Notes: generated by a model not told the origin, from the sequence alone. 64,000 bases of DNA from a virus (IMGVR_UViG_3300042922_000982:1-64000); one strand, 5' to 3'. Positions 32,327 to 61,820 are shown, counted from the stretch's first letter. Program-made: numbers and translations.

Positions 32327-32379
32327 GGGCCCCCAGGAACGGTTTTTTTTGCGTCTGGATAGCAGACAGTAGGGAGGGG
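32327..32379 (+). promoter_or_regulatory. Repeated GGAAC-N16-GGATAG element, copy 1
   Basis: gggcccccaGGAACggttttttttgcgtctGGATAGcagacagtagggagggg. Confidence 0.8.
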
Positions 32380-32455
32380 CGCGTGCCCCGCCCAGCCTTA
32401 CGCCACCCGTGGCGTGGAGGCCCCCGTCACCCCCACCGTTGAAAGGAGAACCGCC

Positions 32456-32860
32456 ATGGCCCCCAAGAACACCACCCCCACCGGCAAGGTCCGCATCTAT
32501 CGCCGCGTCGAGCAGATCGTCGGCCCTGCTTCCTACATCGACACCCTGATCGCCACCTTCGAGGCGATCGGCGACGCGAGCCGCTACGCGCACCACCTGT
32601 CGCAAACCGACATGGCCGACACGGTGATCAAGCAGGGCAAGAACGCCTCGCTGGTGCCGAGCCAGCGCCGGGGCGCCTGCCCGGAGTGCGTCCGGCACTA
32701 CAACTGGAACGACTACATGGGCTCGCGGCGCACCGCCACGGGCACGGGTGCCGCCCAGGTGCGCTGCGATTGCGGCGCCTTGATCGAGCTGGACCTCGGC
32801 TTCCCGATGGGGGGCCACAAGGCCCGGCTGGTGAGCCACGCCCCCGCCCCCGCCCTCTAG
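32456..32860 (+). CDS. Hypothetical protein with CxxC/CxC
   Basis: Start at the conserved AGGAGAACCGCC-ATG. Confidence 0.7.
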   Translation: MAPKNTTPTGKVRIYRRVEQIVGPASYIDTLIATFEAIGDASRYAHHLSQTDMADTVIKQGKNASLVPSQRRGACPECVRHYNWNDYMGSRRTATGTGAAQVRCDCGALIELDLGFPMGGHKARLVSHAPAPAL

Positions 32861-32935
32861 CCCCGCCCATCCCCCGGCGGCCCCTTGTGGGGCCGCCGGT
32901 TGCCCACTACCATGCCCACACAGGAGGATCACCCC

Positions 32936-33463
32936 ATGAACAATGAACAGACCGCCCAGCCTACCCTCGCCCCCTTCGTGTTCTACATGTCCACCAGCTG
33001 GATCATTGAAGAGATGGGAGGGAGCATCAAGGTCGAGGACGTGACGATCAAGCGTCCCGGCCTGCGCCATCCCACCGACGAGGAAATCGCGGCGGGCTGC
33101 GAGGACGCCATGGTGCCCTGCGACGAGGAGGAGGAATACCAGCGCGTGACGCTCTACAGCGTGCCCGGCGCCCGGCGCATCACCCATATCGCGGTCGGCA
33201 CCGGCCGCGTGCCCACCGAGGAGGGCTGGAGCCTGAGCGGCATCACGGTGCGCGAGGACTCGGACACCGACGGCCTGCCCTTCTGGAGCTACGAGCGCAC
33301 CAGCGACGGCGCCGATTGCGACGGCCGCTTGTCGAGCACATGGGATGGCTACTCGGACGGCACGCCCGACCCCGACGCGCCCGCCTACATGGCCGATCGC
33401 TCCAACCTGATCAAGAAGGGCTCGGGCCAGCGCGACTACGCAGCCGAGGCGGCCGGTTACTAG
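32936..33463 (+). CDS. Hypothetical protein
   Basis: AGGAGG RBS; ends QRDYAAEAAGY. Confidence 0.7.
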   Translation: MNNEQTAQPTLAPFVFYMSTSWIIEEMGGSIKVEDVTIKRPGLRHPTDEEIAAGCEDAMVPCDEEEEYQRVTLYSVPGARRITHIAVGTGRVPTEEGWSLSGITVREDSDTDGLPFWSYERTSDGADCDGRLSSTWDGYSDGTPDPDAPAYMADRSNLIKKGSGQRDYAAEAAGY

Positions 33464-33527
33464 CCCCCTACCCCAACACCCCACCTGCCCCGGCCGCGCG
33501 GCCGGGGCCCTATAAGGAGAACGCCCC

Positions 33528-33776
33528 ATGACCCAGCACGAGCGCGCCACGATCACCATCCCCGACGATCGCCCCTACACCCTCACCAACGACCCCATGG
33601 ACGACCTGATGCTCATCGACGACGAGGGCGTCCGGCACCCGATCGGCACGGAGTACGCCGAGGCCCTCGGCGCCAGCGACGAGGAGATCGCGCTGGCCCG
33701 CAAGGGCTACAAGATGGCCCTGCGCACCTGCGCGCTCGACCTGCTCAGCGAGCTGCTCCACGAAGGCGGGGACTAG
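33528..33776 (+). CDS. Hypothetical acidic protein
   Basis: AAGGAG RBS. Confidence 0.7.
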   Translation: MTQHERATITIPDDRPYTLTNDPMDDLMLIDDEGVRHPIGTEYAEALGASDEEIALARKGYKMALRTCALDLLSELLHEGGD

Positions 33777-33780
33777 CCCC

Positions 33781-34053
33781 ATGGAGATCAGCCTGAACAC
33801 GACGGGCCGCACGCACCAGGAGGTCTGGCTCGACGGCACCTTGATCGGGTCCGTGCTCACATGGAGCGCGGGCCCCGGCAAACCCCCTCAGTACGAGGCG
33901 CGCACGGCCGACAGCACCCCGATCCGGCTGGGGCCCAACGGCCCCGACCAGGTCATGTACTACGCGACGTCCGCCGAGGCGGCGGGCGCCGTCCTGATGG
34001 CCTACGGCCAGGGCTTCGCCCACGTCACCCCCGGCTGGTTCAAGAAAGGATAA
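33781..34053 (+). CDS. Hypothetical protein
   Basis: Tightly packed ORF. Confidence 0.6.
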   Translation: MEISLNTTGRTHQEVWLDGTLIGSVLTWSAGPGKPPQYEARTADSTPIRLGPNGPDQVMYYATSAEAAGAVLMAYGQGFAHVTPGWFKKG

Positions 34054-34058
34054 CAACC

Positions 34059-34322
34059 ATGCCCCACAACCACATGCGCGAGGCCACCGAACTTCGCAAC
34101 GAGATCAAGAGCGCCAAGGAGGCGGCCGACGCCACCATGCCGAACAGCGGGGTATCCGCCAACACCGCCGCGATCGTCGCCGCCCAGGAGGCCGTCACGG
34201 CCAACCAGGCGCTGATGCTCGAGGTGCTGCTCGACATCCGCAGCGTCGCGGTGGCCCAGCTTCAAGAGGCGCGCCGGAACGCGCGGGGCTCGGCGCACCG
34301 GGGCGCCTGCCGGGGCAGTTAG
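34059..34322 (+). CDS. Hypothetical protein
   Basis: AAAGGA RBS; stop codon abuts repeat copy 2. Confidence 0.6.
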   Translation: MPHNHMREATELRNEIKSAKEAADATMPNSGVSANTAAIVAAQEAVTANQALMLEVLLDIRSVAVAQLQEARRNARGSAHRGACRGS

Positions 34323-34375
34323 GGCCCCCAGGAACGGTTTTTTCAGGCCCTGGATAGTAGATAGTAGGGGGAGGG
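34322..34375 (+). promoter_or_regulatory. Repeated GGAAC-N16-GGATAG element, copy 2
   Basis: GGAAC at 34331, GGATAG at 34352. Confidence 0.8.
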
Positions 34376-34438
34376 CGCGTGCCCGCCCCCACCGCCAACC
34401 ACCCCGCAAGGGTGCGCACCGTTAAAAGGAGAACCGCC

Positions 34439-35503
34439 ATGGCTCACAATCTGGAAATCATCAACGGCAAGGCTTCCATGTTCAGCGGCTCGGGCGTCAC
34501 GCCCTGGCACAAGCTGGGCGTGGTGCTCCCGCACAACCTGACGGCCGCCGAGGCGATCGTCGCGGCCAACATGGACTGGGACGTGGAGCTGCGCCCGCTC
34601 TACATCGAGATCCCCGGCAAGAGCGGCCGGATCAAGCACCAGGGCATCGAGATCGCCAAGGCGACGGTGCGCGCCACCGACGACGTGGTGCTCGGCACGG
34701 TCGGCAACGCCTACACCCCGCTCCAGAACCGCGAGGCGTTCGGCTTCATCGACGCGATCCTGAGCCCGAAGGACGCCTGCATCGAGACGGCGGGCGTGCT
34801 CGACGGCGGCCGGTGCATCTGGATCATGGTCAAGCTGCCGAAAGACGTCACCGTGAAAGTCGGCCGCCACAAGGACCTGATCACCAAGTACCTGCTGCTC
34901 ACCAACCGCCACGACGGCTTCGGCTGCGTGACGATCAAGATGACGCCCGTGCGGGTCGTGTGCGCCAACACGCTCTCTCAGGCGCTCAAGGGCGGCGGCA
35001 TCCAGATCCGGCACACCGCCTCGGTGGTGAGCCGCACCCAGAACGCGGTCACCGAGGAGATGGGGCTCACCACCAAGTTCACCGAGAACCTGATGGCGCG
35101 CACCAGCGAGTTCTACGCCAACTTCAGCGAGGCCGCCAACGCCATGGGCGCCACCAAGCTGAACGACGAGCGCACCCGCGAGTTCCTGCTCCGCTGCCTC
35201 AAGCGCCAGGCCACCGAGAAGGACTTGTCCGACGCGGAGGCCGTGCGCGACGCGGGCGGCGAGATCAAGGTGCCCAAGGCGCTCGACAAGTGCCTGGAGC
35301 TGGTCGAGTACGGCATGGGCGCCGACATGGCGAAGGGCACGCTCTGGGGCGCCTACAACGCCCTCACCGAGTACGCCGATCACCACATGGGCTACCGCAA
35401 CGACAACAACCGCCTGCGCAACATCGGCTTCGAGGGCAACGGCAACGCCCTCAAGGTGCGCGCCTTCGCCGAGGCGTGCAAGATGGCCAAGGTCGGCATC
35501 TAA
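34439..35503 (+). CDS. DUF932/DUF945-family phage/plasmid protein
   Basis: PWH.LG, LG.VG..Y.PLQN.EAF, ETAG.L.GG, YLLL.N.HDG, TPVRVVC.NTL, RHT, GTLWGAYNA.TEY.DH. Confidence 0.9.
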   Translation: MAHNLEIINGKASMFSGSGVTPWHKLGVVLPHNLTAAEAIVAANMDWDVELRPLYIEIPGKSGRIKHQGIEIAKATVRATDDVVLGTVGNAYTPLQNREAFGFIDAILSPKDACIETAGVLDGGRCIWIMVKLPKDVTVKVGRHKDLITKYLLLTNRHDGFGCVTIKMTPVRVVCANTLSQALKGGGIQIRHTASVVSRTQNAVTEEMGLTTKFTENLMARTSEFYANFSEAANAMGATKLNDERTREFLLRCLKRQATEKDLSDAEAVRDAGGEIKVPKALDKCLELVEYGMGADMAKGTLWGAYNALTEYADHHMGYRNDNNRLRNIGFEGNGNALKVRAFAEACKMAKVGI

Positions 35504-35552
35504 CCCCACCCCCACCCCCGGCTTCGGCCGGGGGCTTCAGGAGACAAACGCC

Positions 35553-35714
35553 ATGAATATTCGAGTCGAGGTCACCTACTACTGCGGCCACAAGAAAACC
35601 CAAAAGGTCGGTCAATACGAAACCTCCAAGGGCAAAATTCAGCGCGCCAGCGAGATCAACTGCCCTGATTGCGTTCGTGATGTCAAGGCCCGTAAGGGAA
35701 CGGTCCTGAGTTAA
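35553..35714 (+). CDS. 53-aa zinc-ribbon protein (not in the ORF track)
   Basis: AGGAG RBS; MNIRVEVTYYCGHKK...NCPDCVRDVKARKGTVLS; bounded by hairpins on both sides. Confidence 0.65.
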   Translation: MNIRVEVTYYCGHKKTQKVGQYETSKGKIQRASEINCPDCVRDVKARKGTVLS

Positions 35715-35761
35715 CCCATGCCCCCGGCCGCGCGCGGCCGGGGCTTTCAAGGAGATCCGCC

Positions 35762-36313
35762 ATGACCACCCCGACCCCCGCCCCCTTCCGCTTCACTGAG
35801 ATGGACCGCGCCGAGATGGGCTACGCCAACGACCTGCTCTCGGAGCACGGCGTCACCATTCGCCCCGTGCCCGACGAGAACAGCGTGATCGCCTACGACG
35901 CCGACGACGAGGAAATTTACCGCACGCCCGACATGTGCTCCATGGTCGACTTCGTCAACGGCTACGCCGTCTGCGCCGGGCGCATGAGCCCGGCCGCCAC
36001 CCCGCAGGCCAGGCATTGCGAGCGCTGCGGCGGCCCCTACTACGCCAAGGCCCGCTGCCAGCCCTGCTACAAGCACCGCTGGGATCGCGGCGTGGAGCGC
36101 CCGCTGCCCGTCACGGACGGCAAGCCCTGGGAGGTCCTCACGATCAAGCGCGCCGCCGACGGGCGCTACCGCTGGCACGTCCACGGGATCAACCACTACA
36201 CCAAGGAGCCGTTCTACTGGAACGTCGCCGACATCGCCGACCCCCAGTACGGCACCGACAACGTCATCGTCGGCGCCGAGCTGATCGCCGAGGCGAGAAA
36301 GGCCCAGCCGTGA
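35762..36313 (+). CDS. Hypothetical protein with a CxxC...CxxCY finger
   Basis: AAGGAG RBS. Confidence 0.7.
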   Translation: MTTPTPAPFRFTEMDRAEMGYANDLLSEHGVTIRPVPDENSVIAYDADDEEIYRTPDMCSMVDFVNGYAVCAGRMSPAATPQARHCERCGGPYYAKARCQPCYKHRWDRGVERPLPVTDGKPWEVLTIKRAADGRYRWHVHGINHYTKEPFYWNVADIADPQYGTDNVIVGAELIAEARKAQP

Positions 36314-36687
36314 CGGCGCGCATCCTGCCCCCGCACCCGATCGGCGCGGGCCAGCCGTTCACCTGGGACGACGTGTTCGCGCACGCCAAGGCCGAGGCCG
36401 AGGCCGTGGCGCCCGTGAGCGAGCTGCTCGCCCTGCTTCCCAAGGGCACCGTCCTGCTCGCGCTGGACGGCTCGCGCTGGCTGTTTGTCGACGAGTGGCT
36501 CGCCAAGCACGGCGATCAATGGCTCAAGCCGGACACCTACGGCCTGGCCACCATGAACGCCGTGCACGAGAGGGGCGGCCGGATTCGAATCTTGCGCCGC
36601 GAGCTGCACCAGGCGGCCGAGGCGTACGACCCCACGATGGCCCTTGTCTGGCACGGCCAGGTCATCAAGTTTCATCTGCCCCGCTAA
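36310..36687 (+). CDS. Hypothetical protein
   Basis: GTGA overlap with the upstream stop. Confidence 0.55.
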   Translation: MTARILPPHPIGAGQPFTWDDVFAHAKAEAEAVAPVSELLALLPKGTVLLALDGSRWLFVDEWLAKHGDQWLKPDTYGLATMNAVHERGGRIRILRRELHQAAEAYDPTMALVWHGQVIKFHLPR

Positions 36688-36777
36688 CGCCCTGGCGGTG
36701 CCTGGTTCTTGCCGGGCGCCGCCCTCGACTGCTAACATAACAACCACCGCCACCCCCACCGACAACGGAGAACCGCC

Positions 36778-37578
36778 TTGCTACACCCACACGAAATTCA
36801 CCTGCCCGGCTGCGCGCCACAGGCACCCGCCACCCCCGCCACCAAGACATGCCCCGCCTGCCGCATCGACCTCCCCGCCGTCGCCTTCAACTTGTGCCGC
36901 TCGCGGCGCGACGGCTTGCAAGTGTACTGCCGCCCCTGCCACGACAACAAGAAGCTGCAAGCCCGCATGCGCGCGATCGCCATCGAGGTGGCCCGCAAGA
37001 CGGCCGAGGCCGAGGCGATCGCCCAGGGCGCCTACGCCCGCGAGGAGGCGGCCCTATCCATTCTGGATCGGGCCGCCGCCACCGAGGCCGAAAACGACCG
37101 GCTGCACGACGCGCTCGCCTTCGACCGCGTGCGCATGCTGGAGCTTCACGCCCGGCTATCCGCCCTCGAGTCCCAGTTGTCCGGCCGCGCGGCCCCCGCC
37201 GCCCCCGCCGACTGGAAGGCCGACGCCGTCGCCTCGGTGCACCGGGCCCTGCGCCACGAGATGGGCTTCGCGCTCGACGAGCTGCGCGAGCGCTTCGGCC
37301 GCGCGGACGGCGTCGACCGCGCGCTCGACGCGGCGGCCTTCGCCGAGAGCAACTTCCCCGGTGACTCCCACGCCATGCGGCTCATCTTCAAGAAGGCGGT
37401 CCGCATCCACCTGCGCCCCATGATCGAGGGCGCGCTCATGACGCGCGAGCACGACAACAACCAATGGGGCCGCAGCATCTGGATCGCCCAGATCGGCCGC
37501 GAGTACCGCATCGCCTACGACCTGAAGGGCGATCGCCCGGCGTTCGTCAAGACCTCGACGCGCGCCTGCTTTTTCTAG
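36778..37578 (+). CDS. Zinc-finger plus coiled-coil protein
   Basis: KTCPAC...F...DGLQ.YCRPC; TTG start after GGAGAACCGCC. Confidence 0.7.
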   Translation: MLHPHEIHLPGCAPQAPATPATKTCPACRIDLPAVAFNLCRSRRDGLQVYCRPCHDNKKLQARMRAIAIEVARKTAEAEAIAQGAYAREEAALSILDRAAATEAENDRLHDALAFDRVRMLELHARLSALESQLSGRAAPAAPADWKADAVASVHRALRHEMGFALDELRERFGRADGVDRALDAAAFAESNFPGDSHAMRLIFKKAVRIHLRPMIEGALMTREHDNNQWGRSIWIAQIGREYRIAYDLKGDRPAFVKTSTRACFF

Positions 37579-37671
37579 CCCCGTCCCCTCACCCCCCATC
37601 GCCCGCCCCGGCAGGGAAGCGCAACCGTGCGCGGCCCGCACCGGGGCGGGCTTTTGACAAGGAGAACCGCC

Positions 37672-38262
37672 ATGGATCCCAACGCCAACATCGCCGAGCA
37701 GCGGCGCATCACCGCCCAAATACTCGACGTCAACGACCCCGGTCGGCTCGACGAGCTGGCCGTTCGGCTTGCCGAGCTGAGCCAGGCCCTCGACGAGTGG
37801 CGCCGAAAGGGCGGCTTCGACCCGTACCTGGGGGCCCCCGAGTACGTCGGCAACAACATGGCGGCCCAGCGCGAGCTGGCGTCGAGCATCGTGGGGGCCT
37901 GGCGCGCGCCCGGCGGCGCCTACGAGCCCGCCGACGGCGCCAAGCTCGCCGAGATGGTGCTGGCGCACGCCGCGCCCGCCAAACCCGACGCCATGCGCGC
38001 GCTGGCCCTTGAGATCACGGCCATGTATGAGGGCGACGGCGAGAGCGGCAACATCGCCGCCAAGGCGTACGCGCTCGCCGACATGGTGATCTGCCAGCCG
38101 CCCACGCTGGCGCTCACCAACGATCAGCGCGCCAAGCTGCGCCAGGCGGCCTCCGAGCGCGGCGAGGAGGTGACGCCCGAGTACCTGCACGAGCAGGCCG
38201 AGCGGGCGCTCGCGATCGGCGTGAACACCATTTACGAGCCGGACTACGACGAGCGCGTGTAG
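37672..38262 (+). CDS. Hypothetical phage protein (MDPNA...ALDEW..KGGF N-terminus)
   Basis: Start at the conserved AGGAGAACCGCC-ATG. Confidence 0.7.
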   Translation: MDPNANIAEQRRITAQILDVNDPGRLDELAVRLAELSQALDEWRRKGGFDPYLGAPEYVGNNMAAQRELASSIVGAWRAPGGAYEPADGAKLAEMVLAHAAPAKPDAMRALALEITAMYEGDGESGNIAAKAYALADMVICQPPTLALTNDQRAKLRQAASERGEEVTPEYLHEQAERALAIGVNTIYEPDYDERV

Positions 38263-38275
38263 GCGATCGCGCGGA

Positions 38276-38303
38276 GGCCCGCCCCCACCGGGGCGGGCCT
38301 TTT
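38276..38303 (+). terminator. Rho-independent terminator
   Basis: ggcccgcccc-cacc-ggggcgggcc-tttt. Confidence 0.8.
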
Positions 38304-38504
38304 GTCGTTTGTGGTGTCGGTTTACAAACCTTCTAACAGGCAGGCCCGGCCGCCTGGTATCATGGCCGCGTGCGACCCTGCGCATGCCCCTCCCTAAAGG
38401 GGCCGTCACCCCCGCCTTCCGCCACCCGGTCATAGCGACCACGGTGCGTGGAGGCCCCAGCCACCCGCGCCCGCCGGGCGCCACCGAAAGGATCCACCAC
38501 CCGC

Positions 38505-39632
38505 ATGAAGTTCACCATCGAACAGGCCGCCCTTCGTGAGTTGCTCTCCAAGGTGCGCCCCTTCATCTCGACCCGCGCGCCCCAGCCGGTGCTGAACAAC
38601 TTTTTGATCGGCGTGAAAGACGGCACGCTGTCGGTCTACGGCACCGACATGGAGTGCACCATGATGACCGGCACCACCCTGCTCGCCGCCACCGACGGCC
38701 GCGTGACGGTGCCTGCCAAGCAGCTGACGGACATCGTCGGCAAGCTGCAAGGCGGCCCGATCGACATCACCTGCGAGGACGGCGTCGAGACCGTCGTCAA
38801 GCAGAAGCGGACCACCTTCAAGCTGCGCGGCATGGTCGCAGCCGAGTACCCGGATCCCAAGGTGCCGCAGGGCGAGCCGGTCCTTGAGCTGGAGGCGAGC
38901 CTCCTGCTCGACATGATCACGCGCACGAGCTACGCCATCATGGGCGGCGAGAACGCGGGCGTTTTGGGCGGCATGTGGCTGCGCCTGCAAGGCGGGCGCC
39001 TGGAGGCGTGCGGCACGGACGGCTTCCGCTTGAGCCACTACGTCAGCGAGTTCGACGCCGACGGCGAGTTCACCGTGATCATCCCGCGCCGCGCCGCCTC
39101 CGAGGTCGCCAAGCTGCTCAAGGGCGCGCAGGGCGCCGTCAAGCTCTTCGAGTCGCGCGGGGAGCTGGGCATCGAGGTCAACGGCGGCGAGGCGTTCATG
39201 ACGACCCGGCACCTCGACGGGCTCTACCCGCCCTTCTGGCAGGTGATCCCCAAGGAGTCCATGCAAACGGTCTACCTGGACCGCCAGAGCCTGATCGACG
39301 CGGTCGACCGCGTGTCGATCATGACCAGCGAGCTGGAGGCGGACCTCATCACGCTCAACTTCGCCGGGGGCGAGCTGACGATCAAGGCCACCCGCGACGC
39401 GACGGGCAGCGGCTCGGACGTGGTCAACTGCGCCGAGGTGTCCGAGCCCTTCGAGGTGCTCATGAAGGCGGGCTACCTGCTCGACTCGCTCAAGAGCAAC
39501 GATTCGGCCAACGTCGGCTTCTTCTTCGCGGGCAAGGGCAAGCCCTGCCTGCTGGTTTCCGACCGCGAGGGTGATCCGCTCACCAGCTTGATCATGCCGT
39601 TCCAGCAGCCGAACGCCCCCGCCCAGGCGTAG
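38505..39632 (+). CDS. dnaN: DNA polymerase III beta sliding clamp
   Basis: 375 aa; MKFTI, PVL.N.L, GTD.E, VPAK.L.DIV, EYP, GTDGFRL, IIP..A..E, G.YP, YLLD.L, LIMP. Confidence 0.92.
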   Translation: MKFTIEQAALRELLSKVRPFISTRAPQPVLNNFLIGVKDGTLSVYGTDMECTMMTGTTLLAATDGRVTVPAKQLTDIVGKLQGGPIDITCEDGVETVVKQKRTTFKLRGMVAAEYPDPKVPQGEPVLELEASLLLDMITRTSYAIMGGENAGVLGGMWLRLQGGRLEACGTDGFRLSHYVSEFDADGEFTVIIPRRAASEVAKLLKGAQGAVKLFESRGELGIEVNGGEAFMTTRHLDGLYPPFWQVIPKESMQTVYLDRQSLIDAVDRVSIMTSELEADLITLNFAGGELTIKATRDATGSGSDVVNCAEVSEPFEVLMKAGYLLDSLKSNDSANVGFFFAGKGKPCLLVSDREGDPLTSLIMPFQQPNAPAQA

Positions 39633-39635
39633 GCC

Positions 39636-39914
39636 GTGGCGCGGAATTTCTACCTCGTCCTGCCGGTGCCCGGCACCGCGCCGGACGTGGTCGGGCTGAT
39701 CGTGAGCCGGTTCTACTCGCAAGACGGCGCGCTGCGCCAGCGCAAGATCCTGCGCGGCGCGCTCAGGCGCAAGCACGGCCCCACGGCCGTGCTGGACCTC
39801 AAGATCGAGAAGGGCCGCGTACCCGACGGCGAGCAGTACTTCAGGGAGTGTCACCGTGGCCGCGACGAGCGTGGCCGCGACGAGCGCGCACCCCGGCAGG
39901 GGGGTGGGGCCTAG
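39636..39914 (+). CDS. Hypothetical protein
   Basis: Follows dnaN; contains a 15-bp tandem duplication at 39855-39884. Confidence 0.45.
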   Translation: MARNFYLVLPVPGTAPDVVGLIVSRFYSQDGALRQRKILRGALRRKHGPTAVLDLKIEKGRVPDGEQYFRECHRGRDERGRDERAPRQGGGA

Positions 39915-39943
39915 CCCCGCCCCCCTCTTTGTGGAGGACCCCC

Positions 39944-40183: not shown

Positions 40184-40195
40184 GAAAATGGGCCA

Positions 40196-40247
40196 GGGCC
40201 CCCAGGAACGGTTTTTTCGGGGTGTGGATAGTAGATAGTAGGGAGGG
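40196..40247 (+). promoter_or_regulatory. Repeated GGAAC-N16-GGATAG element, copy 3
   Basis: GGAAC at 40205, GGATAG at 40226. Confidence 0.8.
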
Positions 40248-42372: not shown

Positions 42373-42382
42373 GGAGACCGCT

Positions 42383-53773: not shown

Positions 53774-54589
53774 ATGACCATCGAGACCCCCAACACCGAG
53801 CCCCGCCGCGCCCTCGCGTTCGGCTACCACCACCCCGCGATTCAAGACTCCAAGGCCGCCTGGGGCGCCCGCGCCATCATCAAGAACGGCGTGCTGGACA
53901 TCGTCTGGGACCGCTGCGATCGCATCGGCACCGACGCCGACTTCGCCCCCATGCGCGCCATCCTCGAGGGCGGCGCGCTGGCCCGCGTGCATCGGGTCGT
54001 GAAGGCGTACTACAACCAGGGCGTGGTGCGCAACGACAAGGCCGCCGAGGTCACGCTCTACCTCGACGACACGATCATGATCGTCGGCAACACGAACGGC
54101 TCGTACGGCTACATGTACCTGGCCGCCTTCTACACCGACGAGGCGGCGGGCCAGGTGCGCCGCACCCTGTACCGCACCACCACCGAGCTGGCCGCCGAGA
54201 CCTGGCTCGCCCAGCTCTACACGCCCGACGGGGTGCGCGTGGGCACCTTCGACGGCTACACCCGCGAGGACCTGATCATGGCCTCGGACGCCGCGATGAT
54301 CGCCGACATGGCGGTGGACATCGTCCCGGCGCCCGACGGCTTCAAGCCGCAGCCGCTGCCGAAGCGGGCCTTCGGCTACGAGATGGTCAAGGCGACCCTC
54401 TTCAAGACCGAGCGGTGCCCGGTGAAGGACGTCCCGCTCTACGGCTCCTGGATCCTGAAGGTGAAGGATACCGCGACCGGCGAGTGGGCGGCGCCGTGGA
54501 GCAGCCACTTCGGCAAGAACGAGGCCAAGGCTCAGCTCAAGCTGCTCAAGGCGATCCACAAGGGCTCGACCTTCACGGAGGTCAAGTAG
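53774..54589 (+). CDS. Hypothetical protein
   Basis: Conserved AGGAGAACCGCC-ATG; AAWGARA, NTNGSYGYMYLAA. Confidence 0.7.
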   Translation: MTIETPNTEPRRALAFGYHHPAIQDSKAAWGARAIIKNGVLDIVWDRCDRIGTDADFAPMRAILEGGALARVHRVVKAYYNQGVVRNDKAAEVTLYLDDTIMIVGNTNGSYGYMYLAAFYTDEAAGQVRRTLYRTTTELAAETWLAQLYTPDGVRVGTFDGYTREDLIMASDAAMIADMAVDIVPAPDGFKPQPLPKRAFGYEMVKATLFKTERCPVKDVPLYGSWILKVKDTATGEWAAPWSSHFGKNEAKAQLKLLKAIHKGSTFTEVK

Positions 54590-54591
54590 CC

Positions 54592-55119
54592 ATGGGCATG
54601 AACCTCAACGGCATCCTGGCCAAGATCGTGGCGGACTCCGAAAGGAGCCCGCTGAGCGCGCCCCAGCAGGGGCCGCTCACGCTCGCTGAGCACCTGTACC
54701 TCTACCCGCAGCCGTGCCCCTACCCCCTGCCGCTGCCGACGGCCACGGTGCGCGAGCTGTACAAGGAGACGCACATCCGCCAGGGCAGCTGGCGCGGGCG
54801 CGAGGACGGCTACAACCACCTCATGCAGGCGGCGAACGCCTACCGCGACGCGGGCGAGGCGCTGCGGCTGGCGCTGCCGTTCGCGACCGGGGTGGCCTAC
54901 GCCTACAGCCCGCGCGAGAACGTCGGCTCGCGCGGGGGCGATCACATCGTCTGCCGCGAGGCCATCGAGATCGACCGGCTCAAGCGGCCGAAGGGCAACA
55001 CGCTCTGCCAGCCGCCATCCAAGCGGTTCTGGGGGCTCGATGAGCGATCCGGCTACCCGAGCTGCCTGGACTGCTTGACGATCGCCGAGCGGATCGTCAG
55101 AAAGGGGTTGCAGCGATGA
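54592..55119 (+). CDS. Zinc-finger protein (H...LC...CxxC)
   Basis: GGAGG RBS. Confidence 0.65.
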   Translation: MGMNLNGILAKIVADSERSPLSAPQQGPLTLAEHLYLYPQPCPYPLPLPTATVRELYKETHIRQGSWRGREDGYNHLMQAANAYRDAGEALRLALPFATGVAYAYSPRENVGSRGGDHIVCREAIEIDRLKRPKGNTLCQPPSKRFWGLDERSGYPSCLDCLTIAERIVRKGLQR

Positions 55120-55415
55120 GCACCGTGATCCATTGGCGTCCGGCCGGGGTGCTGGCGGGCGCCTACCCCGGCGCCAAGCGGGGGCACACCTTCGCCCTCG
55201 ATCGGGGCGTCACCCATGCCGAGGTGCTGCGCGCGTTTCGGCTCGGCCGGTTCTCACGCGAGCCGAACGAGGCGCTGTGCCGGGGCGTGCAGCGCGAGAA
55301 CCTCGGCGATCGCTTCGGTACGGACCCCGACGATCAGGTGACGTGCCCCCGCTGCCAGGACTTGCTGTCCCGGCACGCCAACGAACGGCACGATCCACTC
55401 GAGGATTTCTTCTAG
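55116..55415 (+). CDS. Zinc-finger protein (H...LC...CxxC)
   Basis: ATGA overlap; stop abuts repeat copy 9. Confidence 0.65.
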   Translation: MSTVIHWRPAGVLAGAYPGAKRGHTFALDRGVTHAEVLRAFRLGRFSREPNEALCRGVQRENLGDRFGTDPDDQVTCPRCQDLLSRHANERHDPLEDFF

Positions 55416-55467
55416 GGCCCCCAGGAACGGTTTTTTCGGGGCCTGGATAGTAGATAGTAGGGAGGGG
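55415..55467 (+). promoter_or_regulatory. Repeated GGAAC-N16-GGATAG element, copy 9
   Basis: GGAAC at 55424. Confidence 0.8.
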
Positions 55468-55522
55468 GCCGGGCAACCGGCGCCCCTCCTCCGCTACCCC
55501 CACCGACGAAAGGACACCCGCC

Positions 55523-55957
55523 ATGAACACCAAGAACCCGCACCTCCCCACCCACAAGGGCGCCCACACCAAGGGCCCGAACCACTGGATCATCACCCGC
55601 GATCACTTCGCCGACGCGAACGAGCGCATGGGCACCAACGCCAACGCGCCCGGCGTGCGCTCGCGCAAATGCCCGATCGACCCCGACCTGACCGGCCTCA
55701 CCGCCGATCAGGCCGCCGAGAAGATCGCAAAGCTCGCCAAGGCGGCGGGCATGACCCTGCGCTTCCGCCTGCTCGCCGACGGCGATTCGGACGGCGAGCT
55801 GGAGCTTGTCTACGAGGGCTACATGATGCCCTTCGACCGCCACAACGAGAACGCCGACGGCTTCGAGCCGCAGGACAACTTCGGCGAGGGCAACTTCGGC
55901 ACCACCACGCTCCAGTACTGGAAGCCCGGCAAGGGCGGCGGCTGGGCGATCCTGTAA
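55523..55957 (+). CDS. Hypothetical protein
   Basis: AAAGGA RBS; WIIT.D, FRL..D.D.E..YEG, F.P.D.FG...G.T..QY. Confidence 0.7.
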   Translation: MNTKNPHLPTHKGAHTKGPNHWIITRDHFADANERMGTNANAPGVRSRKCPIDPDLTGLTADQAAEKIAKLAKAAGMTLRFRLLADGDSDGELELVYEGYMMPFDRHNENADGFEPQDNFGEGNFGTTTLQYWKPGKGGGWAIL

Positions 55958-56022
55958 CCGCACCCCCAAGACCCCCACGCCCCGGCGCCGCAAGCGCCGG
56001 GGCCTTCAAGGAGAATCGCCCC

Positions 56023-56646
56023 ATGTCCCACGAACACCAGATGGCCTACCAGACCTCCCAATCTCGCGGCGTGCCGGTCGGCGACGCCCTCTTGATCAAG
56101 CGGGTCCGCGAGGACGGCCTCTTCGCGGTTGTTGAGCACGCCCCGAACTACTGCCGCCACACCGACGCCCTCTTGCCCGGCGTGACGCGCTACCTGCGCG
56201 GGGCCTACACCACGCGCCAGGAGGCCGCCGAGCGCTGCGCGCTCGCCGCCGACACGCCCGGCAACGAGTCGGCCTACAGCGTGGAGGAGCCCACCTTCAA
56301 GCCGGGCTTCGACCCGCGCCTGGGCGCGCCCTACGAGCGCTTCGCGCGCGGCTACGAACAGGCCCTCACCGATCGCCGCGAGAAGGGGCACGACCCCAAG
56401 GTGCTGCTGGCCCCCACCAAGGACGGCGGCTTCGTCATGCAAGACCGCGACGCTTTCCACTTCGACGGCTACGAGCGCGGCCTGGTGGCCACCGCCGCGC
56501 CCGAGATCACCGGCCCGGTGCCGGGTGTCGAGGAGGCGTGGCACCTGTACCAGCGCGATTGGGCCAGCGAGTACGCCCTGCTGGCCATCGACTCGCACGA
56601 CGCCTGGGCGGCGGCCGTGTGGATCGCCCCCTTCATGCACGAATAG
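56023..56646 (+). CDS. Hypothetical protein
   Basis: AAGGAG RBS. Confidence 0.7.
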   Translation: MSHEHQMAYQTSQSRGVPVGDALLIKRVREDGLFAVVEHAPNYCRHTDALLPGVTRYLRGAYTTRQEAAERCALAADTPGNESAYSVEEPTFKPGFDPRLGAPYERFARGYEQALTDRREKGHDPKVLLAPTKDGGFVMQDRDAFHFDGYERGLVATAAPEITGPVPGVEEAWHLYQRDWASEYALLAIDSHDAWAAAVWIAPFMHE

Positions 56647-56724
56647 CCCCACCGGCGCCCGGCCCCACCGGGCGCCCCGTTGTCCCCACCGCCAACCGGC
56701 CCAAACGGGCCAAGGAGAACCGCC

Positions 56725-57225
56725 ATGCACCCTCAGTCCTTCCCCATGGGCCCGTACGGGGCCGCCTACTTGACGCCGGATCCGTCCGGCACGAACGTCG
56801 AGCTTCACCTCTTCACGCCGGGCGAACCGCTCGGGTATGCCTTCATTGACGGCCGCCGCGCCATCCTGCACCTGCACCGGCTGCTCTACCGGGCCACGAC
56901 GGCCAAGGCGGACGCCCGGACGGGAGATGTGCCCGTGTTCCTCGAGATCCTCGAGGGCACCGAGATCACGGCGCGCGTCTCGGGGGTCGCCCCGAACCGC
57001 GACGCCGGGCGGGGCAGCGTGCGCTTGTTCGAGCCGATCGGGCATCGCTACACCGATGGCGAGATCTACGCGGATCGCACGCACGACAAGCCCGCGCGCT
57101 TCTTCATGGTGGAGGGCTACGGCCACCTGAGCGATCTCCGCGAGGCGATCGCCGTTTACCTGGGCGTCGACGAGGGTGCCATTGCGGAAGAGCTGGGTAT
57201 CACCGATGCGGAATTGGGAGGGTAA
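56725..57225 (+). CDS. Hypothetical protein
   Basis: Conserved AGGAGAACCGCC-ATG. Confidence 0.7.
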   Translation: MHPQSFPMGPYGAAYLTPDPSGTNVELHLFTPGEPLGYAFIDGRRAILHLHRLLYRATTAKADARTGDVPVFLEILEGTEITARVSGVAPNRDAGRGSVRLFEPIGHRYTDGEIYADRTHDKPARFFMVEGYGHLSDLREAIAVYLGVDEGAIAEELGITDAELGG

Positions 57226-57229
57226 GATC

Positions 57230-57607
57230 ATGACCATGCAAATCGGATCGTACATCGTCACGCAGCCCACCACGTTCGACGGGGTGGGCGGGGGCCAGGT
57301 TGTCGTCGCCCCCGGCACCTACCCGGTCACGGGCTCGCTCAACATCGACGGGTCGGTGGTCGACTTGTGGGTGATCGCCAAGATGCCCGCCACCGAGGTG
57401 GGCTCGGAGCGCGCTGTGCCGCACGCGATCGCCATGCGCGGCGCGGACCTGGCCCGGCAACTGCTCGACGGCACCTCGCCGGTCACCCTCGCGGGCGGCT
57501 TCGAGGCCATCGGGGTCGGCCCCATCGTCACGCACAACCAGGGCACGCCGCAAGAGGCCACCTTCCAGCGCGCCCGCATCGTTCGAAAGGCTCACACCCT
57601 TGTCTAA
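57230..57607 (+). CDS. Hypothetical protein
   Basis: GGAGG RBS. Confidence 0.65.
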   Translation: MTMQIGSYIVTQPTTFDGVGGGQVVVAPGTYPVTGSLNIDGSVVDLWVIAKMPATEVGSERAVPHAIAMRGADLARQLLDGTSPVTLAGGFEAIGVGPIVTHNQGTPQEATFQRARIVRKAHTLV

Positions 57608-58010
57608 TCACTACTGGCTCGGCGAGACGATCGCCGTCACGCAGCGCGACGGGCGCGGCGTGTTCATCTGGAACGGCCGCGAGTTCGACTCGCCCAAGTC
57701 GGCGCAAGAGGCCATCGGCGCGGAGCTTGAGGCCAACATGGCCGCGCTCAAGGCGCAGGGGCTCACCGCCTACGGCTTCACGGGCTACATGACGGGCAGC
57801 AGCACGCAGATGCGCGTGGTGGTGGCCGCCAAGAGCAAGGCGGCGATCGCCCGCGCCATCGGGGCGCGGACGCCGCCCGTGTGCACGCCGACCGGCAACC
57901 CGGCGGATCTTCGGGCGGCTGCAAGCAAGCCTGGCGCCTTCTTCGCCAAGCCGCTCGCCGGGTACGGGCAAGCACTCAGCGAGGTCGACCCTACCAAGAT
58001 CCGGGCCTGA
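57600..58010 (+). CDS. Hypothetical protein
   Basis: TTG start overlapping the upstream stop. Confidence 0.6.
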   Translation: MSNHYWLGETIAVTQRDGRGVFIWNGREFDSPKSAQEAIGAELEANMAALKAQGLTAYGFTGYMTGSSTQMRVVVAAKSKAAIARAIGARTPPVCTPTGNPADLRAAASKPGAFFAKPLAGYGQALSEVDPTKIRA

Positions 58011-58045
58011 TGCGGTATCATGGCGGTCCTTGAGGGAGGACCGCC

Positions 58046-58369
58046 ATGACCTCGTTTGACCCGCTCGCCCCCGACTACGGCTGCGACCTCGCACGCCACT
58101 TCCCCGCGCCCAAGTCGGCCGAGGAGCTGATCACCCTGCTGGCCGAGGGGGGCGGCAAGCCCCCCGGCGAGCTGGCGCTCGAATTGGCTCGCGACGCCTG
58201 GCCGCAGCACGACATCGCGAGCGCGCGCATCGTCGGCAACACCCTGGAAGCCCAGCTGGCCGTGCCGATCAACGTCATCACCATCACGGCCAGCTGGACC
58301 CCCAGCACGACCCCCGCCATGCCCGCCACGGAGACCCCCGCCGATGCCGACCGCCCCGACGCCCCCTGA
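58046..58369 (+). CDS. Hypothetical protein
   Basis: GGAGG RBS; TATCAT at 58016. Confidence 0.65.
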   Translation: MTSFDPLAPDYGCDLARHFPAPKSAEELITLLAEGGGKPPGELALELARDAWPQHDIASARIVGNTLEAQLAVPINVITITASWTPSTTPAMPATETPADADRPDAP

Positions 58370-58559
58370 GCCCTTTCAAGAGCCCTCCGTGGCCGAGCAG
58401 CTGGCCACCGCGCACACCATCATCGGGCGCCAGCGCGTGAGCCTCGAGACCCTGCAAGCCGAGCTGGCCAAGGTGCAGGCCAACATGGCCACGCTGCGCG
58501 CCGAGCGCAACCACCTGCGCGATCGCCTCGCGGCCCTGGAACACCCGCATGACTTCTAG
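58344..58559 (+). CDS. Small coiled-coil protein
   Basis: Heptad leucine pattern; GGAG RBS. Confidence 0.6.
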   Translation: MPTAPTPPEPFQEPSVAEQLATAHTIIGRQRVSLETLQAELAKVQANMATLRAERNHLRDRLAALEHPHDF

Positions 58560-59052
58560 CCACCGCCGCCCCGCGCGCGACAACGTGGCCGCATGGGGCG
58601 GGGACCTCATTCACGCCCGACTGGGCGCCTACCCGACCGGCTTCGGGGCGGCGTACGCCTACGACACCGGCCGGTGGCGCGTCCGGTTCGTGTGGGGCGG
58701 CACCGAGACGGTGGTGTCGGGCGGCGGCTTCATCGAGACGTTCACCGACGGGCTCAAAGGCGTGTTCACCTCGGCGCGCGCGGCCGGGGCGAGCGCGCGC
58801 AAGGGCGCCTGGGTCGAGCCGCCGCGCATGGCCGACCCCGGCCGCATCCCCGAGTGGATCGACGGCCTGCTCTCGCCGGTGATCGGCGGCGGGGCCAACG
58901 GGCTCGGGCTCTCCGACTTCGGGCTCGCGTACAATTTCACCGACCACACCTGGCGCTGCGTCTTGCGCCAGGGCCCGGCGCGCTGGGAGGCGCGCCACAA
59001 ATACATCGAGGACGCGGTGGCGCAGGCCGCCTACCGTGCAATGGGGCGATAG
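58549..59052 (+). CDS. Hypothetical protein
   Basis: Overlapping packed ORF; internal duplication FG.AY....WR. Confidence 0.6.
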   Translation: MTSSHRRPARDNVAAWGGDLIHARLGAYPTGFGAAYAYDTGRWRVRFVWGGTETVVSGGGFIETFTDGLKGVFTSARAAGASARKGAWVEPPRMADPGRIPEWIDGLLSPVIGGGANGLGLSDFGLAYNFTDHTWRCVLRQGPARWEARHKYIEDAVAQAAYRAMGR

Positions 59053-59071
59053 CCCCGAAAGGAGAACCGCC

Positions 59072-59638
59072 ATGTTCAATCCCATCGGCACGCCCAAGGG
59101 CAAGCCCACCGCGCTCGATGATCGCACCGAGCTGGTCGTCTATGCTCGATCCGGGCGCAACCCGCTTTACGTGATCGTTCAGGACGGCGTCAACGTTGTC
59201 GCGCTCGAAAGCGAGGGCACCAGCGGCTGGCGCATCGAAATGCACACCGCCCCCGTCGGCAAGGGGCCCTTCGGCTACTTGCGCCTGCGCCCGTACGGCC
59301 AGCACGACAAGAACTTCTTCGGCAAGGATGAGGCCCTGGCTGCGGCGCGCGCGGCGCTCGCCTACTCGCTCGGCGACTGGATGCGCTACCAGGCCGCATC
59401 CGAGCGCAGCAAGCTGATCGAGCGCACCCACCGCGTCGCGAAAGACCTCGTCTTCACGCACAAGCAACTTCAGGAGCGATACAACGACTTCAAGGAGGTC
59501 TCGACCAACACCAACGGGCTCATGGATCTCGCCAGGGGCCTCGACCTCATGAAAGAGGCGCAGCAGCGCATCGAGTCGGCGGCCAAGGCGCTAAAAGACG
59601 ACGCGTTCCTCGACCTCGGGCTTCCCGTCACCCCGTAA
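59072..59638 (+). CDS. Hypothetical protein
   Basis: Conserved AGGAGAACCGCC-ATG. Confidence 0.7.
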   Translation: MFNPIGTPKGKPTALDDRTELVVYARSGRNPLYVIVQDGVNVVALESEGTSGWRIEMHTAPVGKGPFGYLRLRPYGQHDKNFFGKDEALAAARAALAYSLGDWMRYQAASERSKLIERTHRVAKDLVFTHKQLQERYNDFKEVSTNTNGLMDLARGLDLMKEAQQRIESAAKALKDDAFLDLGLPVTP

Positions 59639-59664
59639 TCCCCACCACGACAAGGAGAACCGCC

Positions 59665-60249
59665 ATGACTCAAGCACACACCTGGCCGAACCCGGAGTTC
59701 GTCCACCTGCGCGGCAAGGAGGCCGTCGAGCACGTCCGGCGCCACGGCGGCACCCTGCTCAGCGTGCCGCGCGGCGTCAAGGGCGCGCCGTTCAAGATCA
59801 CGCTCGACGACGCGGACGCCCGGATGCAAGACCCCGGCTTCGACGCCTACAACGGCCTGATGGCCAAGGTGCCGCTGCGCGACTACCTCGATCGCGTCGT
59901 TGAAGATCAGTTGGGCGCCGACGTGGAGGACCCCGAGATCCTCGCCACCACCCCCTTCGGGCGCGGCTTCGAAGGGCTGATCGAGCCGACGGGGATCGAG
60001 TGCAATTCGATCATCCTGGTGCTACTCGACGCGCCCGCCTACGGCACCAACCGGCACCGGGCCGCGCAGGGCACCTGGGCCCTCAGCTTCCTCTACGGCT
60101 CGGGCGACGGCGAGTGCCAGAGCAACTGGGCGATCGCCAAGGGCTTTCACGGGATCGCCGAGGCCATGTGGCAAGAGCACGAGGCGCGCGCAGCCGAGGA
60201 GGCCGCGCTCAATGACCGCCTGCTGGCGGCGGAAGGGGAGGGCTTCTAG
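59665..60249 (+). CDS. Hypothetical protein
   Basis: Conserved AGGAGAACCGCC-ATG. Confidence 0.7.
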   Translation: MTQAHTWPNPEFVHLRGKEAVEHVRRHGGTLLSVPRGVKGAPFKITLDDADARMQDPGFDAYNGLMAKVPLRDYLDRVVEDQLGADVEDPEILATTPFGRGFEGLIEPTGIECNSIILVLLDAPAYGTNRHRAAQGTWALSFLYGSGDGECQSNWAIAKGFHGIAEAMWQEHEARAAEEAALNDRLLAAEGEGF

Positions 60250-60250
60250 C

Positions 60251-60535
60251 ATGACGGACGCTCTCGCCATCGAGGTCCAGCGGGCCTACGTCCTGACCGC
60301 GCACGCCCGCGCGGAGAAATTCGCCGGGGTGGCCGCCTCGGTGCGCCAGCAGGCGATCGTACTGAAGGGCATCCTCGACGAGTTACCCGCAGGCACCGGC
60401 ACGCAGGGGCTCGCCGCCTTCGACAAGCTCATGGCCGCCGTGCACGCGCTCGACGCCGCCGACACCCACGCCCACGAGATCGCGGGCAACGCGCTCTCCT
60501 TGCTCAACGACATGGAGGTCCCCCGTGGGAACTGA
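60251..60535 (+). CDS. Hypothetical helical protein
   Basis: GGAGG RBS. Confidence 0.6.
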   Translation: MTDALAIEVQRAYVLTAHARAEKFAGVAASVRQQAIVLKGILDELPAGTGTQGLAAFDKLMAAVHALDAADTHAHEIAGNALSLLNDMEVPRGN

Positions 60536-61337
60536 AAACCGCGAAGGCAAGCTTGCCTGTAAGGCTTGCGGGGCCTACATACCCGTCACCTTCACCGATG
60601 AACGTCAGAACGTGCGCTGCCCGCAGGCCGCGTGTCGCGAGGTCTCGACCGTGCCGACCTTCGCCGAGGCGCGGGCCGTGTGCATCTATCCGGCGGCGAC
60701 CCCGCAGGCCCCGGCGCCGAGCGTGGCCCCGATGGGCTACACGATCGCCGTCGAGGAGGTGGTGCCCTTCTTTCTCACCATCACGAGCGACAACGGGCAG
60801 ACGACCGAGTGGGAGATCGACGAGCAAAACGACAAGGTGCGCGCCGACCTGGAGCGCCTCGGCTTCCGCTTGACGGACGCGAAGCGCGGGCTCTGGCTGC
60901 CGCCCGTGCCGCCCATGTACCTGATCGCCACCTCGCACGATAGCCCCGACGACTTCGCGCACCACCTGATCGGCCCCTTCGCGGGCCGCGACGAGGCGTT
61001 CGCCACCGCGCTCGACGACCCGAGCTACTCCAGCACGTCGGGGGCGTGGGAGCCGACCACCTGGGTGGCGGATCCGAGCGATCACTACGGCTTCCGGCCG
61101 GACAAGCGCCACCCGGCGCTCGGCGGGCTTCCTGCCCCGGAGGTCCTGGCGCCGGGCGAGGTGCTGCGCGCGCGCATCGCGTACCGCACGCGCATGGCCG
61201 ACGTGCTGCGCGCGCGGCTCACGGCGCGCCCCGACGCGACGTACCTGCTCGCCCAGGCCGAGGCCATGGAGGCGGCGATCGCCGTGGCGCACGCCTGGCT
61301 CGACGCCCAGGGCGAGCTGGAGGCCCCCCGTGGCTGA
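60525..61337 (+). CDS. Protein with an N-terminal zinc ribbon
   Basis: CKACG...CPQAAC; GGAGG RBS. Confidence 0.65.
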   Translation: MGTENREGKLACKACGAYIPVTFTDERQNVRCPQAACREVSTVPTFAEARAVCIYPAATPQAPAPSVAPMGYTIAVEEVVPFFLTITSDNGQTTEWEIDEQNDKVRADLERLGFRLTDAKRGLWLPPVPPMYLIATSHDSPDDFAHHLIGPFAGRDEAFATALDDPSYSSTSGAWEPTTWVADPSDHYGFRPDKRHPALGGLPAPEVLAPGEVLRARIAYRTRMADVLRARLTARPDATYLLAQAEAMEAAIAVAHAWLDAQGELEAPRG

Positions 61338-61809
61338 GGGCGCGATCAGCTACTTCGTGCTGGGCTACAAGGGCGGCACGAACACCGTCAAGCTGCTCGA
61401 GTGGGCGCCCGAGCGGGTCAGCATCCGGGGCGCGCGCGGCGAGGTGACCGAGCAAGTCGGCGGCTGGGCCTCCGACATGGAGGAGTCGCTCTACAACCTG
61501 CGCTCACAGCTGCCGGACGGCCTGTTCGCGGCCTACGTGACCCTGTGGTGCAGCCAGGGGATGGAGGACTGGGATCAAGGCGAGCACCTGCTCGCGGTGA
61601 TGCCCGTCGAGACGATCGCCTGGCGGCACACCTGGGGCCCCTTGCGCACCACGCACGAGGAGCGGCGCTACGCGGCCGACAAGGAGCTGGTCGCGCACAT
61701 GCGCGCCATGGAGGCCCAGTGGGACGCCGAGGCCGCCGAAATCAACGCGGCGATGGGCCTTGACGCGCCCGGCGGGCCCCCAGGAACGCTTTTTCACCCG
61801 CCTGGATAG
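61330..61809 (+). CDS. Hypothetical protein ending inside repeat copy 10
   Basis: C-terminus GPPGTLFHPPG and the TAG are supplied by the repeat. Confidence 0.65.
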   Translation: MAEGAISYFVLGYKGGTNTVKLLEWAPERVSIRGARGEVTEQVGGWASDMEESLYNLRSQLPDGLFAAYVTLWCSQGMEDWDQGEHLLAVMPVETIAWRHTWGPLRTTHEERRYAADKELVAHMRAMEAQWDAEAAEINAAMGLDAPGGPPGTLFHPPG

Positions 61810-61820
61810 TGGAGGGTAGG
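61774..61820 (+). promoter_or_regulatory. Repeated GGAAC-N16-GGATAG element, copy 10
   Basis: GGAAC at 61783. Confidence 0.8.

Follow-up and report, generated by a model that had tools for sequence, protein, structure and literature searches.

A repeated promoter-like cassette with a 5' hairpin leader in the rightward gene arm of an uncultured high-G+C phage, and a candidate sigma factor that may read it

The first 64 kb (64,000 nucleotides; 'the window' throughout) of the 157,406-bp IMG/VR virus record IMGVR_UViG_3300042922_000982, 68.8% G+C, contain ten copies of a two-part element, GGAAC-N16-GGATA, and the complete record contains seventeen, all of them in a single arm of small co-oriented genes. 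The record represents a phage lineage without a cultured member, whose genome consists mostly of unknown genes. We conclude that the copies are very probably promoters of one phage-specific, non-housekeeping class. Nearly all of them are fused to a leader that folds into a GC-rich hairpin, and their reader may be a sigma-70-family module embedded in a giant protein of the phage itself. Taken together, promoter class, leader and phage-encoded reader make up what we regard as the best overall explanation, in which our confidence is somewhat better than even. Here we report the anatomy of the element, its counterparts in related phages and the candidate reader, and weigh the alternative explanations against the evidence that bears on each of them.

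The repeated element and its leader

A first-pass annotation of the window listed ten GGAAC starts (32336, 34331, 40205, 40676, 43745, 45909, 49261, 51114, 55424 and 61783), every one of which matches GGAAC-N16-GGATA exactly on the + strand. Its observation that the 16-nt spacer is fixed in length and variable in sequence is true of all ten and extends to all seventeen copies returned by a scan of the whole phage (32336 to 86591), the additional seven lying at 69133-86591, again on the + strand. Ten matches in the window compare with 0.02 expected, and none of 100 shuffles reached that number. Neither spacings of 13-15 or 17-19 nt nor the - strand yielded a copy anywhere in the record. When all pairs of 5-mers separated by a gap were ranked on both strands, this pair came out on top (17 observed, 0.04 expected, Poisson p 3.5e-39); with the copies masked no comparable two-part motif is left genome-wide, and a search for another repeated motif of this kind, one serving the leftward arms, found none. 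Motif scans of IMG/VR, the JGI metagenomes and 185,579 species genomes produced single chance matches in coding DNA only.

All seventeen copies fall inside the + strand gene arm (32-92 kb), where they point the same way as the genes, each in the interval from one stop codon to the following start, and occupy about 15% of the gene junctions. As first described, a leader, a Shine-Dalgarno site and a start codon come after every copy, the start codon lying 51-102 nt past the start of GGATA and opening a block of 1 to about 12 genes. At four copies or more, the preceding gene ends in a TAG that is fused to the conserved box with which the element opens. Strong terminators are scarce, with two only between 32 and 64 kb, and a terminator-like hairpin overlaps just the copies at 32336 and 40676; most copies are thus without a preceding terminator and would add to read-through transcription rather than act as isolated operon starts.

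The copies were aligned on GGAAC and columns numbered from its first G. The upstream box, GGGCCCCCA, spans positions -9 to -1 and is followed by a -35-like block in columns 1-13 (GGAACGG and a tract of five to eight T), the variable part of the spacer in columns 14-20, and a -10-side block, TGGATAG, in columns 21-27. Conservation continues beyond it with AG in columns 29-30 and AGTAGG in columns 33-38, of which A36, G37 and G38 are invariant; the trailing sequence tagayagtagggaggg of the first-pass annotation is present in 12 of the 17 copies at two mismatches or fewer. Then come the hairpin, a C-rich box (CCGTyACCCCCACCG) and the ribosome-site and start context AAGGAGAACCGCCATG. Pairwise identity is 0.82 in the core and drops to a background of 0.61-0.62 just upstream of the box and just past the ATG; the genes that follow the different copies are unrelated. 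Taking GATAGT (columns 23-28) as the -10 hexamer retains A-11 and T-7, and places GGAACG 16 nt upstream and A36 8 nt downstream. As read from the sequence this spacing is ordinary sigma-70-family geometry, and the invariant A36 is the likely, predicted transcription start.

A GC-rich hairpin was found in 16 of the 17 copies and begins at G37, one nucleotide after the invariant A, in 15 of the 17; the stem sequences differ from copy to copy. The 45 nt from A36 onwards have a median folding energy of -26.5 kcal/mol, as against -13.9 kcal/mol in random arm windows, and 13 of the 17 leaders fold below the fifth percentile of such windows (p 6.5e-8). RNAalifold returned no consensus structure for 15 hairpins because the stems vary in length and are unalignable, and the evidence for the hairpin therefore consists of single-sequence folds compared with random windows. 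On these grounds we think it very probable that the leader hairpin is a selected RNA feature. Situated at the extreme 5' end, it would most likely shield the transcripts from 5'-end-dependent RNases. Stabiliser stem-loops at the 5' terminus and start-associated sequences (SAS) are known from the ompA leader, the SP82 5' stabiliser and the cluster K mycobacteriophages. The phage leader is like them in placing a stable stem at most a base or two from the predicted 5' end and in sharing an arm-wide ribosome-site sequence; unlike them it is made of unrelated sequences, and its stabilising function is a prediction.

The ribosome-site context is indeed more widespread than the element itself. Allowing for up to two mismatches, AAGGAGAACCGCCATG occurs at 36 sites on the + strand of the rightward arm (from 32443-62671 in the window onward to 91.7 kb), some of them far from any copy, compared with none in the structural arm and six in the third arm; a 7-nt spacer, AACCGCC, is conserved within it. 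This distribution, together with a hairpin, a C-rich box and a stereotyped ribosome site, which are all features of RNA, could be taken to mean that the copies are RNA-level signals for processing, anti-termination or translational enhancement within one long transcript and not promoters. We hold this to be very improbable, since the most conserved parts (the box, GGAACGG, the T tract and GGATAG) lie upstream of the hairpin in promoter geometry, no upstream transcript is possible at copy 1, and Rfam finds none of its families in the window. Between the first + strand gene and the last - strand gene, which ends at 32066, copy 1 is the sole conserved element, and the divergent gap that holds it showed no sigma-70-like site.

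Promoter class in the phage and its relatives

The element had at first been likened to promoters of the alternative or extracytoplasmic function (ECF) sigma type, and for the ECF type this holds only for its -35 and its spacing. The sigma-E/sigma-H promoters of that type read GGAACN-N16-CGTT (PMC10012870), and the copies share with them the GGAAC -35 core (17 of 17), the T-rich bases that follow, an equal distance to the -10 element and strict spacing. However, the ECF -10 (CGTT/GTC) is absent from all seventeen, which have GATA at columns 23-26 in its stead, and the conserved blocks of the phage are much longer, including the box GGGCCCCCA and the AG..AGTAGG after the -10. The T tract, part of the motif as first described, is not conserved in a close relative (below) and is therefore not a core recognition element. 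Compared to housekeeping sigma-70/sigma-A promoters, GGAACG matches TTGACA at two of six positions and GATAGT matches TATAAT at four of six, with a spacer of 16, and a scan with the sigma-70 consensus calls none of the copies. The J-box of cyanobacterial SigJ/SigF promoters has an aAtacT core with GGG upstream and no conserved -35 (PMC6495340); as a -10 type for the copies it was rejected, the match being too loose and the J-box class being without a -35.

Ordinary promoters do exist in the genome. The arm shows no excess of sigma-70 consensus sites (2 found, 1.3 expected), and sigma-A-type promoters with an extended -10 occur elsewhere. The dnaN gene seems to have an ordinary predicted promoter of its own, preceded by a terminator (Table 1), and a terminator followed by TTGCCG-N17-TAAAAT is found in the same place in the close relative. 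As sigma-A-type promoters coexist with it, the GGAAC class is a second, distinct class.

This coexistence can also be turned around: the host housekeeping sigma might read GATAGT as a weak -10 while a phage or host activator, sitting on the GGGCCCCCAGGAACGG box, substitutes for the -35 contact in the manner of class II activation. A-11 and T-7 are kept in GATAGT, and the upstream block, at about 16 nt plus the T tract, is longer than a -35 hexamer requires. Yet the block is neither a palindrome nor a direct repeat, unlike most activator sites, and no candidate activator was identified. Moreover, G22/G23 and AG..AGTAGG are conserved as strongly as the -10, which indicates a distinct -10 specificity. 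We deem an activator-dependent housekeeping promoter improbable and favour a class read by a non-housekeeping sigma factor.

Counterparts of the element were found in relatives. The close relative (capsid protein 73% identical) is present in Logan assemblies from several runs, SRR20462228, SRR20462231 and SRR20750789 among them, and its homologous divergent junction carries CCCCCA-GGAACGG-N15-GGATAG without the T tract, and a contig of the same run, encoding a 47%-identical version of the giant protein described below, has one more copy within its arm. A 2.5-kb contig, also of this run, begins inside the leader hairpin 57 nt before the DUF932 gene, includes both DUF932 and dnaN, and terminates in another exact copy with the same hairpin just after dnaN; the DUF932 promoter of the close relative lies past the contig end, the break being inside the cassette hairpin. 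The DUF932-DnaN block is thereby bounded by copies in both phages. The capsid contigs of the close relative end in that same leader hairpin, and contigs from three to four runs break within it. The element is thus multi-copy in the close relative too, and assemblies break in it.

In more distant relatives (capsid 52%, giant protein 30% identical) the corresponding sequence is TTCTACA-N14/15-GATA(G/A/T), with eight copies on three contigs where 0.005-0.02 per contig are expected. Here too the -10 side leads into AGTAG-like bases, after which come a hairpin and then a ribosome site, and all copies lie on the coding strand of the arm. The GATAG side and the hairpin, being kept in distant relatives, are therefore old features, and it is the upstream box that has changed. 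The arm of one relative (L035, capsid 54% identical; 1700-8170) carries an unrelated repeated motif, CCTGTGTAAC, often two to three in tandem right before ribosome sites and inverted at the divergent junction, which looks like a different regulatory system within the same genome layout.

A candidate reader and its possible delivery

In the explanation that we prefer, the host core RNA polymerase (RNAP) together with a non-housekeeping sigma factor would read the seventeen promoters, splitting the 60-kb arm into transcription units of 1-12 small genes whose 'early' timing we infer. The proposal of one regulon read by an alternative or phage-encoded sigma factor stands in so far as the regulon spans the whole rightward arm and a phage sigma candidate exists, but no sigma factor of the ECF type was found. 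The candidate came from a search of the rest of the genome, where the only sigma signature is a Sigma70_r3 match (35.9-42.2 bits, above the Pfam cut-off) in a giant protein, one part of which folds like sigma factors. This sigma-SNF2 protein of 2146 residues has a Lys/Ala-rich N-terminus, a sigma-70-family module at about residues 320-690 and a C-terminal SNF2 helicase; its SNF2 part was considered as RapA-like and gave a generic SNF2/Rad54 match only. With phmmer, residues 360-550 were matched to RpoD/SigA, and the alignment with bona fide sigma factors extends across regions 2-4. Residues 320-640 were modelled with AlphaFold at a predicted local distance difference test score of 88.8; the top 50 Foldseek matches of the model in the Protein Data Bank (PDB) are all sigma factors, and VIA-align places the sigma-2 domain with a Z of 11.2 at 1.4 Å and sigma-2 plus sigma-3 with a Z of about 10. 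Region 4.1 (DPRARYAVV..GLEDGG) is separated by an insertion of about 110 residues from a region-4.2-like helix-turn-helix (IAVSDVFERLGY.PGTGRKMLMNAK), so that regions 2, 3 and a split region 4 of the phage's own protein would supply the sigma function. Six-frame searches of the phage for Sigma70_r2, r4 and r4_2 gave nothing significant and detected no ECF-type sigma; ECF sigma factors (group 4) consist of sigma-2 and sigma-4 only, and the one module of the phage has a region 3. No RNAP subunit genes were found in the phage; a search with PF00940 for a single-subunit polymerase gave no match and is uninformative, control genomes being equally silent.

Homologues of 2100-2250 residues occur in at least five other uncultured phages, among them carriers of either promoter type; unfused sigma-like proteins of 520-650 residues also exist. 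Co-occurrence was compared in L047, L054 and L055, leaving out the L036 gene and the L049 and L053 promoters, and each of the three carries both a giant sigma-SNF2 protein and the promoter type. Their 4.2-like helices resemble one another among the GGAAC phages and likewise among the TTCTACA phages, and the two groups differ in this helix. All in all, we give the phage module close to an even chance of being the reader of the copies.

Several points weigh against this explanation. The start site, the timing and promoter function are all inferred from sequence. The copy at 61783 is without a hairpin. Region 4 of the module is atypical and Pfam finds neither region 2 nor region 4, while a fold of residues 505-700, computed as a test of sigma-4, is confident and yet has no PDB match. 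The link between sigma factor and promoter is a correlation over four or five related lineages that follows their phylogeny and is therefore not independent evidence, and L036, of the TTCTACA type, stands outside the gene comparison. Finally, a host alternative sigma with GGAAC specificity is a possible reader.

In that last case the copies would be promoters read by a borrowed host sigma (ECF-type or group 3), and the phage module would have another role. The atypical region 4 of the phage module speaks for this, as do the GGAAC core and the GGAACN-N16 geometry of the sigma-E/sigma-H promoters (PMC10012870) and the loose likeness of GATAGT to the aAtacT core of the SigJ/SigF J-box (PMC6495340). 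On the other hand, no copy has the ECF -10, J-box promoters have an upstream GGG and no conserved -35, and it would be unusual for 60 kb of phage genes to hang on a stress-gated host sigma. Furthermore, the same GATAG-plus-hairpin type occurs in phages of probably different hosts: the L054 contig has no site of the cyanobacterial octamer HIP1 (described below) where others have many, which makes a different host probable, yet it keeps this promoter type. The 185,579 species genomes and the JGI metagenomes, with their single chance matches, likewise offer no set of host promoters of this kind. We therefore think a borrowed host sigma unlikely and retain the phage module as the preferred reader.

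How such a module could reach the host RNAP in time is suggested by where it is encoded. The giant gene lies among head genes and adjoins the portal gene, and in relatives it follows the portal, NUDIX and LPD1 genes. The giant protein and its two large neighbours (100659-102569 and 102598-104223, - strand) share an N-terminal stretch of about 40 residues at 42-51% identity, which may be a capsid-targeting signal. A giant protein near the portal, with NUDIX and LPD1 genes in the relatives, resembles the injected polyvalent proteins (PMC5512222, PMC7824862), and the gene setting and shared N-terminus fit delivery with the DNA to act on early promoters; the giant protein is probably packaged in the virion. 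The term 'sigma factor' is absent from the text of the polyvalent-protein paper (PMC5512222). N4 injects a whole virion RNA polymerase that reads hairpin promoters (PMC4496689), and SPO1-type phages employ sigma cascades (gp28, gp33/34), as other phages encode further sigma factors (PMC13401047, PMC7824862). Like the SPO1 type, the present phage encodes a sigma-70-family module and confines a promoter consensus of its own to one gene module; unlike those small, free-standing, early sigma factors, its module resides within a 2146-residue SNF2 protein encoded in the head-gene block. A full scenario, which we put forward only tentatively and consider less likely than not, is that a sigma-bearing polyvalent protein is packed in the capsid, injected, captures the host core polymerase and fires the seventeen promoters in the immediate-early phase; its fused SNF2 motor could assist on the DNA as it enters, and within the clade the -35 half of the code would have switched (GGAACGG versus TTCTACA) along with the region-4.2 helix. 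In the gaps on either side of the giant gene (92.6-93.3 kb and 100.0-100.3 kb) there are sequences like the T arm of tRNAs (GGTTCGAnTCC) as well as -10 boxes of the sigma-A type (TGCTACACT).

Block exchange, genome setting and significance

The repeats had also been proposed to act as recombination joints at which blocks are gained, lost or reordered, by analogy with the promoter-stem-loop cassettes (PeSLs), the composite promoter-terminator motifs of T4-like phages (PMC2839356, PMC4122927). Such a role could be added to any of the readings above. Like PeSLs, the copies are numerous and co-oriented and combine a promoter with a stem-loop; they occur where small genes without relatives form a hyperplastic region, and their length is suited to homologous exchange. 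The differences are that the stem-loop lies downstream, in the leader, and is followed by a C-rich box instead of a U run, so that it is no terminator, that the promoter is not sigma-70-like, and that the blocks are larger.

Evidence on exchange itself is divided. Subfamilies of leaders are 89-95% identical over about 100 nt although 8-34 kb apart and beside unrelated genes (copies 2 and 5, for instance, are 95% identical over 105 nt), and such scattered near-identity implies cassette copying or gene conversion. The arm is hyperplastic, only 1 of the 22 arm genes of one relative having a homologue in it, and an extra 5-kb block (86591-91759) starts exactly at a copy, after the one shared arm gene. 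But this synteny break is the single boundary at a copy, and as about 15% of junctions carry one, one coincidence is weak evidence. The clearest difference in gene content from the close relative, three plus two genes, lies within the DUF932-DnaN block, whose bounding copies both phages keep; these insertions or deletions are hence not at the repeats. Neither paralogues among the arm proteins nor duplicated blocks were found. One break thus falls at a copy and others do not, and we consider a role as recombination joints less likely than not.

Three gene arms are resolved in the whole record by codon-position G+C; they are listed in Table 1 with the ten window copies and associated features. 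DUF932 and DnaN are the only named families among the arm proteins (PHROGs, Pfam), and the window has no tRNA genes. A 16-bp inverted repeat at 32301-32351, A7-CCGTTCC...GGAACGG-T8 (-29.6 kcal/mol), has the -35 of copy 1 as its 3' half; the repeat resembles a bidirectional terminator, yet no genes converge there.

Table 1. Gene arms, copies of the element and associated features, in coordinates of the record
Feature	Position	Strand	Remarks
Left arm	1-32066	-	capsid, sheath, tube and baseplate genes
Rightward arm	32414-91759	+	some 90-130 small genes
Window part of the ~60-kb rightward arm	32327..64000	+	carries all ten window copies; mostly genes without relatives
Third arm	91835-157101	-	portal, large head-associated proteins, ThyX, methylases
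Copy 1	32327..32458	+	GGAAC at 32336, start codon at 32456; opens the rightward arm at the divergent junction
Copy 2	34322..34441	+	before the DUF932 gene (34439-35503); leader 93% identical to copy 5
Copy 3	40196..40326	+	after the DnaN block; leader 89% identical to copy 1
Copy 4	40667..40786	+	471 nt after copy 3; box and GGAA pair with upstream TTCCTGG, terminator-like hairpin
Copy 5	43736..43856	+	sister leader of copy 2
Copy 6	45900..45998	+	most divergent; box GGCCGGTTC; shorter hairpin, earlier start
Copy 7	49252..49363	+	leader 89% identical to the copy at genome 80994
Copy 8	51105..51207	+	leader 89% identical to the copy at genome 85137
Copy 9	55415..55525	+	TAG stop of the upstream gene fused to the box
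Copy 10	61774..61854	+	only copy without leader hairpin; upstream ORF ends in the TAG of GGATAG
Terminator hairpin, then sigma-A-type extended -10	38273-38302; 38355-38363	+	upstream of dnaN; extended -10 TGGTATCAT
Second strong intrinsic terminator in the window arm	47045-47074	+	
Sigma-SNF2 protein, 2146 residues	93587-100027 (L028:9587-16027)	-	Sigma70_r3, SNF2, ResIII, Helicase_C (Pfam)

The capsid protein shares about 30% identity with its counterparts in SPO1-type Bacillus phages, which makes the phage a distant high-G+C relative of that group, an SPO1-like myovirus. Queried with 18 kb, megablast retrieved no close relatives among 50,697 phage records, and a viral contig collection queried with the capsid protein and a sigma alignment gave no matches. 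The commonest 8-mer of the genome is GCGATCGC, or HIP1 (191 observed, 6.3 expected; one site at 38263-38270), a hallmark of cyanobacterial genomes (PMC5861425). This excess makes a cyanobacterial host probable, and the host is probably a high-G+C cyanobacterium. The relatives L047, L049, L053 and L055 are likewise HIP1-rich, whereas L054 has 0 sites. Two paralogous D12-class N6-adenine DNA methyltransferases (144942-146225 and 146776-148104, - strand; 47% identical over 406 residues), whose genes both adjoin the ThyX gene, could be connected with the GATC core of HIP1.

Phages are known to use repeated promoters of their own, and the class described here, joined to a 5' hairpin leader, is best regarded as a further form of this strategy. 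The combination of a consensus, a fused 5' hairpin leader and an arm-wide ribosome-site context nevertheless makes an unusually complete expression cassette, and it yields a 17-unit promoter map for a 157-kb genome of unknowns. Promoter and sigma module constitute a test pair that is usable in vitro without the host, and the two -35 types among the relatives could show sigma factor and promoters changing together. If a virion-delivered sigma factor proved true, it would represent a new phage route to the takeover of transcription at entry, with a promoter code of its own.

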